Source of the DNA: Acidimicrobiales bacterium
GTDB taxonomy: Bacteria > Actinomycetota > Acidimicrobiia > Acidimicrobiales > SHLQ01
Direction: 5' to 3'
Assembly (NCBI GenBank): GCA_965216815.1
Contig: OZ244202.1
Location: 785,762 to 849,761, forward strand
DNA length: 64,000 nt
Shown here: positions 48,755-60,567 of the stretch, piece by piece
Layout of the letters: each line of letters opens with the position of its first letter
Numbering within the stretch: the first letter of the stretch is position 1
The notes under the pieces: model-generated
Told to the model about the DNA's origin: nothing
Databases searched by the model: none
The model's input: the letters and a program-made list of their open reading frames with translations, nothing else
Translations under genes and position numbers: made by a program

Positions 48755-50088
48755 AGTCGCGGCGGCGCAACGCCGAACTCGGACTCATCGTCCTCGCGTC
48801 GGCGGTCACCGCCGGGGCGTACGTGCTGGCCAGCCTCGGCCAGTCGGCATCGATCCCTGCCAACATCGGGCCGTTCCTCGGCGTGGTCATCGGATTGCTG
48901 GTTCTCGCGCACCTCGCCAACCGTTGGCTCGCGCCGTCCGCCGACCCGGTCCTACTGCCGCTCGCGGCGCTACTGAACGGTCTCGGGTATGTCTTCATCG
49001 TCCGCCTCGCCGGCGATCTCGGCGATGACGCGGCCGACCTTCCCGGGCTTCAGGCCAACTGGGTCGCGATCTCCATCGCGGCATACGTAGGCGTGCTGTT
49101 GTCGGTCCGACGGGTTCGCTCGCTCGAGCAGTACCGCTACATCCTCGCCGTGATCGGTCTGGTGCTGCTCCTCGTGCCTCTCCTGCCCGGCATCGGTCGC
49201 GAGATCAACGGAGCACGAATCTGGGCGAGCATCGGCCCGGTCAACTTCCAGCCGGGCGAGTTTGCGAAACTCGCGCTCGCGATCTTCTTCGCTGCGTACC
49301 TCACCGACAAGCGAGAACTGCTGCAACAGGCGACGGTTCGCATCGGCCCCGTGCGCTTTCCGGAGCCGCGCCACCTCGGCCCGATCCTCTTCGCCTGGGG
49401 CCTGTCGATTCTCGTGATGATCGCGGAGAAGGACCTCGGTTCGTCCCTGCTGTTCTTCGCCATGTTCGTCGTGCTCCTCTGGGTCGCAACCGAGAAGCTC
49501 GGCTATGTCGTCCTCGGCTTCTTGATGTTCGGAGCCGGTGCAGCCTTCACCTGGTCGCAGTTCAGCCATGTGCAGGACCGCGTGTCGACCTGGCTCGATC
49601 CATGGTCGGTCGCAAAAGAGGAGGGGTTCCAGACGGTCGAGTCGGCGTTCGCTCTCGCGGAAGGTGGATTGACCGGCTCGGGACTCGGACTCGGAGAGCC
49701 CGATCGCATACCCGAGATCGAGACCGACTTCATCTTCGCCGCTATAGGCGAGGAGCTCGGGCTCCTCGGTGCCGCGGCGGTCTTGATGGCCTATCTGTTG
49801 ATGATCGGTTCGGGATTGCGAATAGCTGTTCGGGCCCCGCGGACATTCGACAAGCTCCTCGCCGTCGGCCTCACAACCCTCATTGGCACCCAGGCGTTCA
49901 TCATCATCGCCGGCGTCATACGACTCGTGCCGCTCACCGGCATCACCTTGCCGTTCGTGTCCTACGGTGGATCGTCGCTGCTCGCGAACTATGTGCTGCT
50001 GGCGTTGCTCATCCGTCTGTCCGATGAGGTCGAGGGAGACGCCGCCGACGAGGCGTCTGGGGCGGCCAGCGAGCCCGTAGCGGTATGA
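48751..50088 (+). CDS. rodA: SEDS-family peptidoglycan glycosyltransferase (RodA/FtsW)
   Basis: 'NGARIWASIGPVNFQPGEFAKLALAIFFA', 'DFIFAAIGEELGLLGA' and 'GITLPFVSYGGSSL'. GTG start overlaps the pstP stop. Confidence 0.85.
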   Translation: MKSRRRNAELGLIVLASAVTAGAYVLASLGQSASIPANIGPFLGVVIGLLVLAHLANRWLAPSADPVLLPLAALLNGLGYVFIVRLAGDLGDDAADLPGLQANWVAISIAAYVGVLLSVRRVRSLEQYRYILAVIGLVLLLVPLLPGIGREINGARIWASIGPVNFQPGEFAKLALAIFFAAYLTDKRELLQQATVRIGPVRFPEPRHLGPILFAWGLSILVMIAEKDLGSSLLFFAMFVVLLWVATEKLGYVVLGFLMFGAGAAFTWSQFSHVQDRVSTWLDPWSVAKEEGFQTVESAFALAEGGLTGSGLGLGEPDRIPEIETDFIFAAIGEELGLLGAAAVLMAYLLMIGSGLRIAVRAPRTFDKLLAVGLTTLIGTQAFIIIAGVIRLVPLTGITLPFVSYGGSSLLANYVLLALLIRLSDEVEGDAADEASGAASEPVAV

Positions 50089-51644
50089 ACAAGCAGATCC
50101 GGCGACTCGCCGGGGTTCTCGCCGTTCTCTATGTCGCGCTGTTCGTTCAACTCAACATCGTGCAGCTGTTCGGCGCGCAGCGCCTCAAGGACGACCCGAA
50201 CAACACCCGCCCGCTGTTCGAGGATTTCGACGAGCTGCGCGGCGACATCGTCACTGCCGACGGAGCGATCGTCGCAACGTCGGTCGAGATCGACGATCCG
50301 CGGTTCGATCGCCGCCGGGTATATCCCACCGAGGACCTGTTCGCACACGTGAGTGGCTTCTTCTCGTTCAACTTCGGCGCCGACGGTGTCGAGCGGGAGT
50401 ACAACGATCTGCTCACCGGCGACACCGCCGAGCAGCAGTTCGGTGACCTCAGTGCGCTGCTCGACGATCGGGACCCGACCGCCGACGTCATCCTCACGCT
50501 TCGCCAGGACGTCCAGACGGTCGCCAAGGAGATGCTCGGCGAGCGGCAAGGGTCGGTCGTCGCGCTCGACCCGCGAGACGGGTCCATCCTCGCCGCTTAT
50601 ACGTGGCCGACGTACGATCCGAACTTCTTGTCCGACCCCGACGCCGCCAATGCCGACGCTGCAAGACGATTGCTGCTCGACTCCGACCTCGATCCGCTGT
50701 TACCGAAGTTCTACCGCGAGATCTTCTTCCCAGGCTCGACCTTCAAGGTCGTGACTGCATCGTCCGGTGTCGACAACGACGTGGTCGACCGAACCGAGCC
50801 GGTCTATCCGACTGTCACCGAGTACACGCCACCGCTCACGACGCGGCCGATCTCGAACTTCGGGGGTTCGGCCTGCGGCGGGAACCTCTTCGACATCCTT
50901 CGCCGGTCGTGCAACTCGTCGTTCTCGCAGATGGCGTCCGAGCAGCTTGGACCCGAGCCGCTCATCGCCACTGCCGAGGATTTCGGTTTCAACGAGTCGG
51001 TGCCCATTGACCTGCCGGCTCCGGCAGAGTCCAACTTCCCGACCGACTACGGCGATTTCGTGGCACCGGTCACCGAGTACGTCGAAGATCCGTTGCCCGG
51101 CCCCGGTGGGGAGCCTGCCGATGTCTTCGACAACCAGGCCGCCCTGGCGCAGGCCGCCATCGGCCAGAACGATGTGAAGGCCACGCCGATGCTCATGGCG
51201 ATGATCGCGGGTGCGCTCGGTAACGAGGGGATCATGATGGAGCCCCACGTGATGGCATCGGCGGTCGATCAGACCGGCCGAACCATCGATGAGTACCGCC
51301 CGTCGGTGTGGCAGCAGGTAACGGCTCCGTCGACGGCGTCGCTGATGCGCAGCGCGATGCAGGGTGTGGTCGACGGCGGCACCGCGTCGGGGCTGGCGCT
51401 ACCGGGATTCGAGGTTGGCGGCAAGACGGGGACGGCGCAGCTCGGCACTCCCGAGCCGCAGTCTCACGCGTGGATCATCGGATTCGCAGGTCTACCGGAC
51501 GAGCCGCCGAGCGTGGCGGTCGCGGTGATCGTCGAGGCACAGCCCGGGGCGTCCGAGCAAACCGGCGGACGTGTCGCAGCCCCGATCGCCAGGGCTGTTC
51601 TCGAACAGGCTCTCCAGACTCCGGTGCCCGTCACTCCGAACTGA
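50085..51644 (+). CDS. pbpA: Class B penicillin-binding protein (transpeptidase)
   Basis: 'FPGSTFKVVTA' (SxxK), 'SCNSSF' (SxN) and 'GGKTGTAQ' (KTG). The ATG overlaps the rodA stop. Confidence 0.85.
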   Translation: MNKQIRRLAGVLAVLYVALFVQLNIVQLFGAQRLKDDPNNTRPLFEDFDELRGDIVTADGAIVATSVEIDDPRFDRRRVYPTEDLFAHVSGFFSFNFGADGVEREYNDLLTGDTAEQQFGDLSALLDDRDPTADVILTLRQDVQTVAKEMLGERQGSVVALDPRDGSILAAYTWPTYDPNFLSDPDAANADAARRLLLDSDLDPLLPKFYREIFFPGSTFKVVTASSGVDNDVVDRTEPVYPTVTEYTPPLTTRPISNFGGSACGGNLFDILRRSCNSSFSQMASEQLGPEPLIATAEDFGFNESVPIDLPAPAESNFPTDYGDFVAPVTEYVEDPLPGPGGEPADVFDNQAALAQAAIGQNDVKATPMLMAMIAGALGNEGIMMEPHVMASAVDQTGRTIDEYRPSVWQQVTAPSTASLMRSAMQGVVDGGTASGLALPGFEVGGKTGTAQLGTPEPQSHAWIIGFAGLPDEPPSVAVAVIVEAQPGASEQTGGRVAAPIARAVLEQALQTPVPVTPN

Positions 51645-51736
51645 ATGCGACGAGCAGCCCCTGCCGGTAACGGCGCCCCGTGCCGGTCAGGTGCGTGAGC
51701 CATTCGGTGGTCGGGTGAGGGTTAGAATCGTCTGTC

Positions 51737-53809
51737 ATGTCTCAGCAGGGACCAACCGTTTTCGGCGGACGGTACGAGCTTCAGCGACAGCTCGCGCGCG
51801 GCGGAATGGCCGACGTTTTCCTCGCACGCGACCAGACCCTCGACCGCCAGGTTGCCGTCAAAGTTCTCATCGCCGAGTTCGCTTCCAACCCGGCGTTCGT
51901 CGAGCGGTTCCGGCGCGAGGCTCAGGCAGCGGCGAACCTGAACCACCCCAACATCGTCGGCATCTACGACTGGGGCGAGGAACGCGGCACCTACTTCATC
52001 GTCATGGAGTACGTCGAAGGGCGAAGCCTCGCAGAGATCCTCCGCACAGAAGGGCCGATGCACCCCGATCGCGCGGCTGAGGTTGCGATCGATGTAGCGA
52101 TGGCCCTCGACGCGGCCCATCGGCAAGACCTCGTCCATCGCGACATCAAGCCGGGCAACGTTCTGCTCTCGCCGACGGGTGAGGTGAAGGTGGCCGACTT
52201 CGGAATCGCCACCGCCATCGCCGCGGGCACCGACAACAACCTCACCCAGGCCGGCCAGGTCATGGGCACCGCCACCTACTTCTCGCCCGAACAGGCACAG
52301 GGTCACAAGGTCGACCAGCGCTCGGACATCTACTCGCTCGGCGTCGTTCTATACGAGATGCTCACCGGCGACCCACCGTTCAGCGGCGAGACGCCGCTTT
52401 CGGTCGCCTACAAGCACGTGCAGGAAAAGCCCGTGCCGCCTTCGGACAATGGCGCGACGATCGCCCCGTCGCTCGAGGCGATCACGATGAAGGCTCTCGC
52501 GAAGGAGCCCGGGCGCCGCTATTCGGGCGCGGCAAAGCTCGCCGCCGATTTGCGACGTTACCGCGAAGGCCAACACGACCTGGGCGCGGCGGCGGCAGCT
52601 GCCGGTGCGGCGGGTGCCGCCGCCGGTGTTGCTGCCACCGGCCTCGCCGACGGGCCGACCGACCCACCGCCGCCGGGAGCTGCCGGTCAACCGACGATGG
52701 CGTCGCCTGCGGCCGCTGCCCCCGGCACGCCTCCGGGCGGTTACCCCCAGGCGGCCGGTCCCCCGTCGGGGACCTACTACACCGTTCCGCCGCGCGACGA
52801 TGGCTGGCGTCGCTCGACTGTGTTCGCTGTCGCATTCGTGGCGCTTGTCGCCGTGCTGATCGGGCTGCTGCTGGCGCTTCGCGCCGCGCTAGACAGCGGC
52901 AACGACGACCCGTCGGTCGAGACCGTCACGCTCGCGCGCGTCGAGGGGCTCCCACTCGAAGAAGCTCAGGCGGTCCTCGAAGCCGACGGTCTGCGCGTAA
53001 CACCGGAGTTCGAGGAGAACGCCGATGTGCCCGAAAACGAAGTGTTCCGACAGGATCCCGCCGCGGGCACCATCGTCGAGGTCGACAGCGAGGTCGTTCT
53101 CACCGTCTCGAAACCGAGCGAGGAGTTCGAGCTCCAGAACCAGGTCGGCAAGACGAGCACCGACGCCGAGGAGTTTCTCAGGAGCCAGGGTCTAGAAGTC
53201 GCAATCGAGACCGAAGAGCACCCCGACGCACCCGTGGGTGAGGTCATCGGGATGGATCCACCGGCCGGCACCACCGTAAACGAGGGCGACACAATCACGC
53301 TGATCGTCTCACAGGGTCCGGGCACCTGCACCGTGCCGGACGTAAAGGGCAAGTCGAGCAACGATGCAGTCGCCGAGATAATTCGGGCGAGGTTCGAGCA
53401 GGAAACCGACACCGAAGGCAGCAACTCGGTTGCCGAAGGCAACGTGATCCGTACCGAACCTCCGGCGAACACGCCACTGAACTGTGGTGAGACGGTCAAG
53501 ATCGTCGTGTCGAGCGGAACACCCCAGGCGATGGTGCCCAGCTTCGTCGGTCTCATCCCCGAGGCGGCACAGGCTGCGGCCGATGCTGCGGGCCTCGTGC
53601 TAGTGATAGTCGAGGTCGAAGTTCCCGCCGGCAGTGACCAGGTCGGGCGCGTTGTTTCACAGTCACCGGCGCTCAACACCAGCGTTGCGGTCGGCTCGGA
53701 AGTCACCGTCGAGGTCGGCAAGGCTGCTGCGCCGACCACGACCCAGCCGCCGTCAACCACGACCCAGCCGGCGAACACCACGTCTACACAGCCGCCGACC
53801 ACGGCGTAG
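51737..53809 (+). CDS. pknB: Ser/Thr protein kinase PknB with four PASTA domains
   Basis: 'LARGGMADVFLARD...VAVKVL', 'HRDIKPGNVLL', 'DFGIA' and 'GTATYFSPEQA', then a Pro/Ala linker, one TM and four PASTA-like repeats. Confidence 0.9.
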   Translation: MSQQGPTVFGGRYELQRQLARGGMADVFLARDQTLDRQVAVKVLIAEFASNPAFVERFRREAQAAANLNHPNIVGIYDWGEERGTYFIVMEYVEGRSLAEILRTEGPMHPDRAAEVAIDVAMALDAAHRQDLVHRDIKPGNVLLSPTGEVKVADFGIATAIAAGTDNNLTQAGQVMGTATYFSPEQAQGHKVDQRSDIYSLGVVLYEMLTGDPPFSGETPLSVAYKHVQEKPVPPSDNGATIAPSLEAITMKALAKEPGRRYSGAAKLAADLRRYREGQHDLGAAAAAAGAAGAAAGVAATGLADGPTDPPPPGAAGQPTMASPAAAAPGTPPGGYPQAAGPPSGTYYTVPPRDDGWRRSTVFAVAFVALVAVLIGLLLALRAALDSGNDDPSVETVTLARVEGLPLEEAQAVLEADGLRVTPEFEENADVPENEVFRQDPAAGTIVEVDSEVVLTVSKPSEEFELQNQVGKTSTDAEEFLRSQGLEVAIETEEHPDAPVGEVIGMDPPAGTTVNEGDTITLIVSQGPGTCTVPDVKGKSSNDAVAEIIRARFEQETDTEGSNSVAEGNVIRTEPPANTPLNCGETVKIVVSSGTPQAMVPSFVGLIPEAAQAAADAAGLVLVIVEVEVPAGSDQVGRVVSQSPALNTSVAVGSEVTVEVGKAAAPTTTQPPSTTTQPANTTSTQPPTTA

Positions 53810-58472: not shown

Positions 58473-60020
58473 ATGAGCATCATCCACAAGAGCAACGCGC
58501 CAGACGTCGACATCCCCGACGTCCCGATAACCGATCTCGTCTTCCGCAAGGTCGATGAGCTCGCCGACAGCACGGCGATGGTCGATGGAGCGACCGGAGC
58601 CGAGTGGACCTTCGCTGAACTCTACGACTCGGTGAAACGGCTTGCCGGCGGCTTGTCGGCGCAGGGCTTCGGTCCCGGGTCGACTCTCGCGATCCTCGCG
58701 CCGAACATGCCCGAGTACGCCGTCGTGTTCCACGGAGCGGTGCGTGCCGGTGGAACCGTTACCACCGTCAACCCCACGTACACGCCCGAGGAGATCCAGC
58801 ACCAGCTCGTTGACTCGGGCGCCACCGCGATCTTCACGATCGAGGCTGCCGTGCCGCTGGCTCAGGCAGCAATGGCGGGAACCTCGGTGACCGAGATCAT
58901 CGTCGCCGGCGAGGCCGAGGGGGCGACATCTCTCGAGTCCCTCTACGGCGACCCCATCGAACAGGTGACGGTCGACGTCTCCGACCACGTCGCTGTGTTG
59001 CCGTATTCGTCCGGCACGACCGGTCTGCCCAAGGGTGTCATGCTCACGCACCGCAACCTCGTCGCGAACATCGTTCAGATCGAAGCGTTGATGGCATATC
59101 AGCCAGGAGAGGTAGCGCTCGCAGCGTTGCCGTTCTTCCACATCTACGGCATGCAGGTGCTGATGAACGGGCTCCTCGCGCAGGGCGTCGAGGTCGTTTC
59201 CATGCCGCGGTTCGATCTCCCCGAGGCGCTCGGGCTCGTTCAGAAGCATGGAATCACACAGTTCTTCGCCGTCCCGCCGATGGTGCTTGCGCTGGCCAAA
59301 CACCCGATCATCGACCAGTTCGATCTGTCGTCGTTGAAGATGGTGTTCTCGGGCGCGGCCCCTCTCGGCGCCGATCTGGCGCACGAGGCGGGTAGCCGCA
59401 TCGGCTGTGAGGTGGTGCAGGGATACGGCATGACCGAGCTCTCGCCGGTCACCCACCTCACGCCGACCGGTGAGTTCAAGCCCGGATCGTCGGGCGTCAC
59501 CGTCCCATCGACGGAATGTCGGATCGTCGACGAGGAAGGCGAAGACCAGCCCGTCGAGGGTGAAGGCGAGCTCTGGGTGCGCGGTCCGCAGGTAATGAAG
59601 GGCTATCTGAACAACGCCGAAGCGACCGCCGGCACCATCGACGAAGACGGCTGGCTACACACCGGCGATGTCGCGAAGTTCGATGCCGACGGTCACGTCT
59701 ACATCGTCGATCGAGTCAAGGAGCTCATCAAATACAAGGGTTTCCAAGTACCGCCCGCCGAGCTCGAAGCTCTGTTGTTGACCCATCCTGCAGTCGCGGA
59801 TGTTGCGGTCATAGGTGTCGCCGATGACGAGGCAGGAGAGCTACCCAAGGCGTTCATCGTCTTGAAGCCCGATGCTTCCGCCACCGCCGACGAGCTTCAG
59901 GAGTTCGTGAAGGGCCACGTTGCCACCTACAAGCAGATCCGCATCGTAGAGTTCACCGACGAGATCCCGAAGTCCGCGTCGGGCAAGATCCTTCGCCGCA
60001 TGCTTCGCGATCAGTCGTGA
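58473..60020 (+). CDS. AMP-dependent acyl-CoA/4-coumarate-CoA ligase
   Basis: 'LPYSSGTTGLPKGVMLTHRNL', 'GYGMTE', 'TGDVAKFDADGHVYIVDRVKELIKYKGFQV' and 'PKSASGKILRR'. Confidence 0.85.
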   Translation: MSIIHKSNAPDVDIPDVPITDLVFRKVDELADSTAMVDGATGAEWTFAELYDSVKRLAGGLSAQGFGPGSTLAILAPNMPEYAVVFHGAVRAGGTVTTVNPTYTPEEIQHQLVDSGATAIFTIEAAVPLAQAAMAGTSVTEIIVAGEAEGATSLESLYGDPIEQVTVDVSDHVAVLPYSSGTTGLPKGVMLTHRNLVANIVQIEALMAYQPGEVALAALPFFHIYGMQVLMNGLLAQGVEVVSMPRFDLPEALGLVQKHGITQFFAVPPMVLALAKHPIIDQFDLSSLKMVFSGAAPLGADLAHEAGSRIGCEVVQGYGMTELSPVTHLTPTGEFKPGSSGVTVPSTECRIVDEEGEDQPVEGEGELWVRGPQVMKGYLNNAEATAGTIDEDGWLHTGDVAKFDADGHVYIVDRVKELIKYKGFQVPPAELEALLLTHPAVADVAVIGVADDEAGELPKAFIVLKPDASATADELQEFVKGHVATYKQIRIVEFTDEIPKSASGKILRRMLRDQS

Positions 60021-60053
60021 GTAGGACGCGGGGACAGACCCCGTGTCCTACTC
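60019..60053 (+). terminator. Long stem-loop after the ligase gene (possible terminator; no T tract on the + strand)
   Basis: GAGTAGGACGCGGGG-ACAG-ACCCCGTGTCCTACTC, with one mismatch, followed by AAAA. Confidence 0.4.
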
Positions 60054-60090
60054 AAAAGGGTGTGTTCACCGAAGAAGGAGAGCGTGATAC

Positions 60091-60567
60091 ATGGGATTCC
60101 ATGACCTGGAGATGACATCGATCAAGGGCGAACAGGTTTCGCTCGGCGACTACGAGGGCAAGGTCTGCTTAGTAGTCAACGTCGCTAGTGAATGAGGGCT
60201 GACGCCCCAGTACGCAGGTCTGCGTGCTCTTCATCACGATTTCGCTGACCAGGGCTTCACGGTCCTCGGGTTCCCGTGCAACCAGTTCGGCAAACAGGAG
60301 CCCGGTTCCGACGCCGAGATCCTCGAGTTCGCCAGTTCGAACTACGACGTCGACTTCCCAATGTTCTCCAAGATCGAGGTCAACGGCGACGGCGAAGCCG
60401 AGCTCTACACCATCTTGAAGGCTGCACAGCCCGGCGACGGTGACACTCCCGACATCACCTGGAACTTCGAGAAGTTCCTCGTCGGTCGCGATGGGACCGT
60501 GCTGGCGCGCTACGCCCCACCGACCACACCCGAAGACATCGCCGCGGAACTACCTACATACGTGTAG
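60091..60567 (+). CDS. Glutathione peroxidase homologue with an in-frame TGA (60193-60195) at the catalytic Cys/Sec position; candidate selenoprotein
   Basis: Hand translation: 'MGFHDLEMTSIKGEQVSLGDYEGKVCLVVNVASE[TGA]GLTPQYAGLRALHHDFADQGFTVLGFPCNQFGKQEPGSDAEILEFA...DITWNFEKFLVGRDGTVLARYAPPTTPEDI'. AAGGAG ribosome-binding site lies 11 nt upstream of ATG 60091. The frame is the same before and after the TGA. The ORF track shows only the last 68 aa. Confidence 0.75.
60209..60228 (+). other. SECIS-like hairpin 13 nt downstream of the in-frame TGA
   Basis: AGUACGCA-GGUC-UGCGUGCU: an 8-bp stem including one G-U pair, with a GGUC loop. Confidence 0.55.

Follow-up and report, generated by a model that had tools for sequence, protein, structure and literature searches.

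A conserved in-frame TGA tied to a coding-region hairpin in an Acidimicrobiales glutathione peroxidase gene, a probable selenoprotein

Does a stop codon at the catalytic position of a glutathione peroxidase (GPx) gene mark a broken gene, or a site at which selenocysteine (Sec) is inserted? The question is raised by a locus in a 64,000-nucleotide stretch of contig OZ244202.1 (positions 785,762 to 849,761, forward strand; assembly GCA_965216815.1) from an Acidimicrobiales bacterium, which we call the window. The program that listed open reading frames (ORFs) reports only a 68-aa piece of this gene, at 60361-60567. A first-pass annotation, made from the letters alone, had proposed that the piece belongs to a split gene of 158 codons beginning at ATG 60091 behind an AAGGAG ribosome-binding site (60075-60080), and this reading held up. 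Translation from that ATG to the TAG at 60565-60567 meets a single internal stop, the TGA at 60193-60195, in the context NVASE-TGA-GLTPQY. With the internal stop replaced by Cys for the profile searches, the product matched the Pfam family GSHPx (PF00255) over the entire profile (1-108 of 108; E 2.3e-42, 143 bits, cut-off 27) and the NCBIfam glutathione peroxidase model NF007900 (E 2.4e-55). Its N-terminus, M-G-F-H-D-L-E-M, agrees with orthologues such as that of the nearest relative, L003, and the U-x-x-T redox motif of bacterial Sec-containing GPx is present as U-G-L-T. TGA is also the commonest ordinary stop of the window, ending 23 of 36 long ORFs, so recoding here would be specific to the site rather than the sign of a changed genetic code. 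From the comparisons set out below, we consider it very probable that the gene encodes a selenocysteine glutathione peroxidase of the known bacterial U-x-x-T type, its UGA being decoded by way of a selenocysteine insertion sequence (SECIS) hairpin. The features of the locus are collected in Table 1.

Table 1. Features of the GPx locus (window coordinates)
Feature	Position	Strand	Basis or remark
Shine-Dalgarno-like AAGGAG	60075..60080	+	10 nt 5' of ATG 60091; read from sequence
Sec-type GPx coding sequence, complete (putative)	60091..60567	+	158 codons; Sec = codon 35; stop TAG 60565-60567
N-terminal 34 codons before the TGA, missed by gene callers	60091..60192	+	Protein conservation
In-frame TGA, predicted Sec U35 at the peroxidatic position, motif U-G-L-T	60193..60195	+	Alignment with catalytic Cys codons
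Spacer from UGA to stem, codons G-L-T-P and start of Q	60196..60209	+	Third positions vary freely
18-nt block CAG TAC GCA GGT CTG CGT, codons 40-45	60208..60225	+	Invariant in 24 Sec-type genes
Predicted SECIS core, 7-bp stem (60210-60216 with 60221-60227), GGUC tetraloop 60217-60220	60210..60227	+	RNAalifold consensus, 24 sequences
Gln69 codon, predicted catalytic-tetrad Gln in G-K-Q-E-P-G	60295..60297	+	Q in 160/161 aligned Sec- and Cys-type proteins
Trp124 and Asn125 codons, remaining predicted tetrad residues, in I-T-W-N-F-E-K-F	60460..60465	+	W and N in 161/161

The TGA is not peculiar to the window. Besides the window, 24 genome loci and 73 bacterial metagenome loci were found to carry it. 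Several matches of the first protein search were only 122-124 aa long and covered only the part after the TGA; their contigs carry the same in-frame TGA, preceded by the conserved N-terminal piece. A genome scan, with one genome per species, added 21 TGA-type loci, 20 of them labelled Acidimicrobiales, Ilumatobacteraceae or unclassified Actinomycetota. The nearest relative shares 85-88% protein identity with the window GPx. Cultured organisms are represented as well, for example by Salinilacustrithrix flava, where the orthologue on the complete chromosome is 75% identical and has the same TGA, and by Ilumatobacter nonamiensis YM16-303 (L008), where it is 71% identical and has both the same TGA and the same hairpin element. 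The Sec-type comparison set comprised 24 sequences, all distinct, with median identities of 64% for protein and 68% for DNA. Against the other Sec-type genes, codons 3-34 show 50-88% protein identity and the part after the TGA 58-85%. Across these 24 sequences conservation is thus about equal in the 32 codons compared before the TGA and in the 123 after it, which argues for protein-level selection on an N-terminal segment that is translated together with the rest. At the aligned codon, the 61 Cys-type homologues from the genome scan have TGC or TGT within NV/TAS-x-C-G-(L/F)-TPQY, so the TGA does stand at the peroxidatic Cys position, as first suggested.

These data also settle the simplest alternative, that we are dealing with an ordinary pseudogene or with an assembly or sequencing error, a nonsense change having turned TGC into TGA. 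The two codons are one base apart, and pipelines do call such genes truncated; the first-pass annotation had warned of this, and NCBI orthologues named "glutathione peroxidase" (P0083, P0089) are indeed given as 122 aa. However, the same TGA recurs in about 100 independent assemblies spanning 50-94% protein identity, with the frames intact and without frameshifts or further stops. An assembly error at 60195, which had been raised as a concern, is excluded by this recurrence, and we regard the explanation as refuted. A pseudogene, a sequencing error or a start after the TGA cannot account for such a pattern. One locus found by the genome scan stands apart in its label: L029 (LNFB01000333.1, "Deltaproteobacteria bacterium Ga0077550") is the only Sec-type locus of that scan labelled outside Actinomycetota. 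Both the GPx and the hairpin of this locus are of Acidimicrobiia type; upstream of the TGA its frame is open for 373 codons. The label could reflect mis-binning, horizontal transfer or a fusion.

What distinguishes this TGA from a stop is the RNA that follows it. An 8-bp hairpin with a GGUC loop had been described in the window at 60209-60228, starting 13 nt after the TGA. That description is accurate for the window, but the conserved stem is only 7 bp long; the eighth pair, A-U (60209/60228), is found in 3 of the 24 genome-scan sequences, and the usual sequence in relatives is GUACGCA-GGUC-UGCGU(A/G)C. The hairpin is present in all 25 TGA-type genome loci and in all 73 bacterial TGA-type metagenome loci. 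For the latter, the search pattern stopped before the hairpin, so its presence was not selected for. Among the 80 loci returned by the metagenome scan, 66 have the canonical hairpin and seven (L099, L130, L132, L138, L144, L146 and L156) have a variant, in which GCA GGT CTG is replaced by GCC GGG TTG. In these the closing A-U pair is gone, leaving a 6-bp stem and a 6-nt CGGGUU loop that retains GGU. The only bacterial TGA-type metagenome gene lacking the hairpin is the frameshifted L151 (RCNG010072185.1, positions 58-117). Here GCAGGTCTGC, which lies between two GTACGC stem repeats, is deleted, the frame is shifted and early stops follow; the gene may be a true pseudogene, or the assembly may have collapsed the hairpin.

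Conservation of the hairpin exceeds what the protein asks for. When the 24 Sec-type genes are aligned by codon, no more than 10 of the 158 columns are free of any nucleotide change; the TGA and the six hairpin codons supply seven of them, and TGG at codon 124 is another. A run of six consecutive invariant codons has a permutation p < 1e-5. Three of the codons concerned, GCA, GGT and CGT, are minor codons in this genome of 64% GC, and in the window GCA, GGT, CGT and CTG account for 14%, 21%, 13% and 25% of their own codon families. Neighbours that are equally invariant as protein (G36, T38, P62 and P71) use three or four codons each, and the spacer varies among GGG/GGC/GGT, CTG/CTC/CTT/TTG/ATG, ACN and CCN. 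On 82 distinct bacterial sequences, 98.3% of stem cells are paired, with double changes at two pairs: C21-G32 becomes U-A in two contigs (L147, L162), and G22-C31 becomes A-U in two others (L128, L138). At these pairs (21/32 and 22/31) both sides always change together, at a protein cost of R to H, R to C or A to T. The observed pairing and covariation values were reached by 0-1 of 500 shuffles. The hairpin is selected for as an RNA structure, and it goes strictly with the TGA.

It could still be asked whether the hairpin follows simply from the codons that spell Q-Y-A-G-L-R-A, or has a role unrelated to the UGA. The motif Y-A-G-L is common in Cys-type GPx too, and the stem covaries little in the genome-derived set. 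Against this, the Cys-type genes with Y-A-G-L spell it with other codons and form no hairpin, while the codons of the Sec-type genes are minor and frozen. The paired changes keep the stem despite amino-acid changes, and among bacterial genes the hairpin occurs with TGA (the pseudogene L151 excepted) and never with TGC. The closest Cys-type relatives (L088, L089/L090 and L091) are especially informative: at 68-72% identity they are nearer than many Sec-type genes, and they have TGC, common codons and no hairpin, so that the combination of TGC with the same downstream sequence was not found in them. One of them, L089, lies in the same neighbourhood (ChsH2-thiolase-S4-GPx-SNF2-Fpg) as the Sec-type loci L001, L002 and L004. 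The 61 Cys-type genes of the genome scan vary at all six hairpin codons and, in protein, at three of the six residues. Sec-type genes alone encode Arg45, where Cys-type genes have E, Q, K, A or V; this suggests that the stem dictates this residue and not the reverse. Given this evidence, we find it scarcely credible that the hairpin arose from the protein sequence or serves some other purpose. As a separate observation, the Ilumatobacteraceae metagenome-assembled genome (MAG) ASF_21 carries the two forms in tandem: a Cys-type copy (L024:10097) with TGC, no hairpin and a Cys of the "EVCEF" type is immediately followed by a Sec-type copy (L024:10564) with TGA and the canonical hairpin.

Six TGA-type GPx genes from the metagenome scan (L093, L102, L115, L136, L140 and L168) have no hairpin in the coding region. 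They read VNVAS(F/K)-U-G(S/Y)TPQY, their frames break after about 30-50 codons as if at introns, and their GC content is 44-62%, mostly lower. These are probably selenoprotein GPx genes of eukaryotes (algae or protists) with a SECIS in the 3' untranslated region (3'UTR), for which the missing coding-region hairpin is expected.

The hairpin also agrees with what is known of bacterial SECIS elements. The bSECISearch model (PMC13188914 Fig. 2A) describes a loop of 3-9 nt, an upper stem of 4-16 bp, 16-37 nt from the UGA to the loop, G in one or both of the first two loop positions (as a rule G, then G or U) and a minimum free energy of -7.5 kcal/mol or lower. On all four bSECIS criteria the window hairpin falls within these bounds, with its 4-nt GGUC loop, 7-8 bp stem, GG at the start of the loop, distance of 21 nt (60196-60216) and energy of -10.7 kcal/mol for the 22-nt hairpin (-9.9 in most relatives). 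The loop residues G25 and G26 are invariant in the 82 distinct sequences. A likeness to the SECIS of E. coli fdhF had been proposed in the first-pass annotation, with the element shifted by one codon, and both points were confirmed against NC_000913 (L087), which reads TGACACGGCCCATCGGTTGCAGGTCTGCACC. The decamer GCAGGTCTGC is common to the two elements and lies one codon nearer the UGA in E. coli; the apical GCAGGUCUGC with its GGUC loop is identical to window 60214-60223. The fdhF host gene is unrelated to GPx, and both hairpins are in frame and downstream of the UGA. The decamer occurs once in the window, where 0.22 occurrences are expected, and at least once in 19 of 100 shuffles; consequently, the match to fdhF is not significant by itself.

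Several observations weigh against decoding of the UGA through this hairpin. The loop starts 21 nt after the UGA in the window and 18 nt after it in fdhF, and the fdhF stem has an unpaired U (GGUUGCA.../...UGCACC) where the window stem is continuous. In E. coli fdhF this unpaired U contributes to SelB binding. Judged by sequence, the window hairpin resembles the fdhF apex and is not a copy of the fdhF element. The region 60193-60250, which had been put forward for folding, does form the hairpin, but in its 58-nt context the fold is unremarkable compared with shuffles (z -1.36), so its significance comes from the comparative data and not from energy. Support from covariation is real but thin: two pairs in four sequences supply it, the greater part of the stem is invariant, and among the 24 genome-derived stems, which hardly vary, there is no compensatory change. 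No Rfam family matched the window at the gathering threshold, and permissive settings on 60150-60300 returned only a spurious long non-coding RNA (E 9); Rfam covers bacterial SECIS elements poorly, and this null result counts for little. Finally, searches with E. coli SelA, SelB and SelD (tblastn) and with ARAGORN, covering the window and the fetched loci (>2 Mb), found no selA, selB, selD or tRNA-Sec in the 64-kb window and no selA, selB or tRNA-Sec in any fetched locus, the only match being a SelD in L020.

This last result raises the possibility that the gene is a relic: the GPx of the lineage would be a true selenoprotein gene, but the window's organism would have lost the Sec machinery and would make only a 34-residue peptide. 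In addition to the lack of sel genes and tRNA-Sec within 64 kb, Sec use is patchy, Acidimicrobium ferrooxidans is listed without the trait, and one decayed metagenome copy of the gene, L151, exists. However, sel genes are not expected in a 64-kb sample of a multi-megabase genome. The window gene shows no damage before or after the TGA, its 8-bp hairpin is perfect and its tetrad intact, and it has kept 85-88% protein identity with its nearest relative. We consider a relic very improbable. The Sec trait itself is already documented in the class Acidimicrobiia, Ilumatobacter included. For example, I. nonamiensis YM16-303, whose GPx orthologue is described above, is recorded as SelD+, SelA+ and SelB+ with 10 selenoproteins (Peng et al. 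2016 Tables S1, S2), and I. coccineus as SelD+, SelA+ and SelB+ with 15 known selenoproteins; neither has selenouridine or Se-cofactor genes (Peng et al. 2016). In the Actinomarinales, of the same class, selA, selB, selC and selD are all reported throughout the order (2026 preprint). The Secmarker supplements hold no Acidimicrobiia entries, and a mention of Ilumatobacter in a tRNA-engineering review concerns GlnRS and is irrelevant to Sec. Thus, although the first-pass annotation was right to propose a candidate selenoprotein, its TGA and hairpin proving to be conserved, linked and absent from Cys-type relatives, the TGA gene is less novel than that annotation implied.

Other genes in the fetched loci bear on Sec use in these bacteria. 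In an Acidimicrobiales MAG (GCA_035764875.1), an ArsM-family methyltransferase gene (L002:2077-2865, + strand; TGA at 2695-2697) lies 6 kb upstream of the Sec-type GPx gene, and gene callers split it at its TGA into two genes, of 206 aa and 43 aa. This TGA aligns with a conserved Cys of a solved ArsM structure (5evj, "llgeCLAGAL"), which would give U-I-A-G, an instance of the known U-x-x-G motif. NCBIfam arsenite-methyltransferase selenoprotein models match it with E of 1e-60 to 1e-70, and by these alignments it is likely a second selenoprotein gene. The fold downstream of its TGA is unremarkable (z +1.21), and folding energy was dropped as evidence both here and for the window hairpin in context. 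No copy of an ArsM-like selenoprotein gene was found in the window or the other loci. Generic selenoprotein scans were noisy in this high-GC DNA, giving 367 candidates for TGA plus hairpin and 62 for TGA plus a coding signal from GC at third codon positions, among which the ArsM-like gene of L002 was the one credible extra gene. The SelD mentioned above (L020:1-1427, + strand; NODE_73 of an uncultured Acidimicrobiales MAG) is fused to an N-terminal pyridine-nucleotide-disulphide oxidoreductase domain and lies 9 kb upstream of that contig's Sec-type GPx gene. Its active site, CGGCGAK, is the Cys form; among named relatives, fusion SelDs of marine Rhodobacterales come nearest, with about 50-58% identity. 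The apparent stop that opens its ORF is merely the edge of the locus. As a route to selA and selB this gene was set aside, being a Pyr_redox-SelD fusion with close relatives on short contigs and unrelated neighbours of its own.

If the UGA is read, the residue inserted might be one other than Sec, either through a SelB- and SECIS-dependent tRNA charged with Cys or through suppression by near-cognate tRNA-Trp or tRNA-Cys. Sequence alone cannot tell the inserted amino acid, and tRNA-Sec-like tRNAs carrying Cys have been described in a few bacteria. The rest of the protein provides a clue. In a 161-protein alignment, a Cys between QEPG and FPMF, in the block that holds the resolving cysteine, is present in 65 of 65 Cys-type proteins and in 0 of 96 Sec-type proteins. 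Its place is "...F-C..." in the 60 Cys-type proteins that fall outside the Sec clade and three residues earlier ("EVCEF/W") in the five nested within that clade; the resolving-Cys positions correspond in the window GPx to L77 (60319-60321) and A80 (60328-60330). The loss in the Sec-type clade of a cysteine kept by every Cys-type protein indicates that position 35 is chemically unlike Cys, and Trp at the peroxidatic site would be inactive. Moreover, a strain that carries the gene has standard SelA, SelB and SelD together with several other selenoproteins. We therefore give insertion of another residue very little credence, less than we give a relic, and selenocysteine remains the reading that we prefer.

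If Sec is inserted, translation would start at ATG 60091 and proceed to the UGA at 60193-60195, where Sec-tRNA(Sec) brought by SelB would decode the codon in place of release factor 2. SelB would be recruited by the hairpin at 60209-60228 (codons 40-46), whose loop begins 21 nt after the UGA, and selenium would be inserted in this manner in the window's own organism. The predicted product is a 158-residue peroxidase with the tetrad U35, Q69, W124 and N125; the last three are what we take to be the tetrad residues, from an alignment by eye with human GPx4 (U46, Q81, W136, N137). Because it has no resolving cysteine, the enzyme probably works by a one-selenol mechanism, in which the selenenic acid would be reduced directly by an external thiol reductant. 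Mammalian GPx1 and GPx4 are similar in having Sec as the peroxidatic residue and a Gln/Trp/Asn tetrad without a resolving Cys. Their SECIS differs, as in eukaryotes it lies in the 3'UTR and has a different structure, while that of the window clade is in the coding region. The Cys-type bacterial GPx (BtuE / PRK10606, thioredoxin-dependent two-cysteine enzymes) are 53-72% identical to the window protein and share its fold family and tetrad, but have TGC or TGT, no hairpin and the cysteine of the resolving block.

How did the two forms come about? In a neighbour-joining tree of GPx proteins, calculated without support values, the 96 Sec-type proteins form one clade that holds five Cys-type tips, with about 60 Cys-type proteins outside. 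The genes of the five nested tips have no hairpin. From this topology the Sec form would seem to have arisen once and to have reverted to Cys a few times, a reading that is tentative given a tree of this kind. A broader scenario would join these observations: Sec and the resolving Cys would be mutually exclusive and the exchange reversible; Sec and its SECIS would have arisen once, with loss of the canonical resolving Cys; the reverted lineages would have evolved a new Cys three residues away; and, as the apex is shared with E. coli fdhF, the genes could perhaps be expressed in E. coli without re-engineering. Taken as a whole we regard this scenario as rather doubtful. If true, it would provide a natural experiment in which Sec shifts the GPx cycle from two thiols to one selenol.

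Bacterial Sec-containing GPx are not new. As far as the accessible parts of the literature go, enzymes with the U-x-x-T motif have been described since 2004-2005 and counted in the Sargasso Sea, in the Global Ocean Sampling (GOS) data and in genome surveys; they are recorded in 13 organisms by Peng et al. (2016) and as 40 sequences in GOS, and the carrier lineages are not stated in those parts. By their description, such proteins (Treponema denticola WP_010957027.1; Sargasso Sea, GOS) resemble the window GPx in belonging to PF00255 and in having peroxidatic Sec and U-x-x-T. In these accounts, as in the window, a stem-loop with G in its apical loop follows closely after the UGA within the coding region. 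Within the same accessible portions, we found no published text naming the GPx of this clade or describing its SECIS.

Two features of the surrounding window may be added. Directly upstream of the gene, a 16-bp intergenic hairpin (60018-60054, + strand; -32 kcal/mol, z -6.45, with 0 of 200 shuffles as stable) begins at the TGA stop of a gene for an acyl-CoA ligase and has its end 37 nt ahead of the GPx start codon. It is not followed by a U-tract. Its probable role is that of a terminator or mRNA-end hairpin, so that GPx would be transcribed on its own. Further upstream (50085-53809, + strand), a PbpA-type transpeptidase gene is followed by one for a Ser/Thr protein kinase with four PASTA repeats, an order that we take to be typical of the actinobacterial pbpA-pknB cell-wall cluster; the pair fits an actinobacterial source for the window.

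Our understanding of selenoprotein biology is unchanged by this locus, since both the enzyme family and the Sec trait of the lineage have been published. Its value lies first in annotation. The window gene and about 100 relatives are called as fragments of 68 aa or 122-124 aa, and while NCBIfam has Sec-specific models for ArsM-type selenoproteins, none matched the window GPx. The strictly conserved pattern TGA-N12-CAGTACGCAGGTCTGCGT is a simple and specific marker by which the full gene can be recovered, and it also flags Sec-using Acidimicrobiia in genomes and metagenomes. Beyond annotation, the GPx of this clade adds a clear example to known themes: a SECIS that appears to constrain its host protein, as at Arg45, switching between Sec and Cys, and the occurrence of Sec together with loss of the resolving cysteine.

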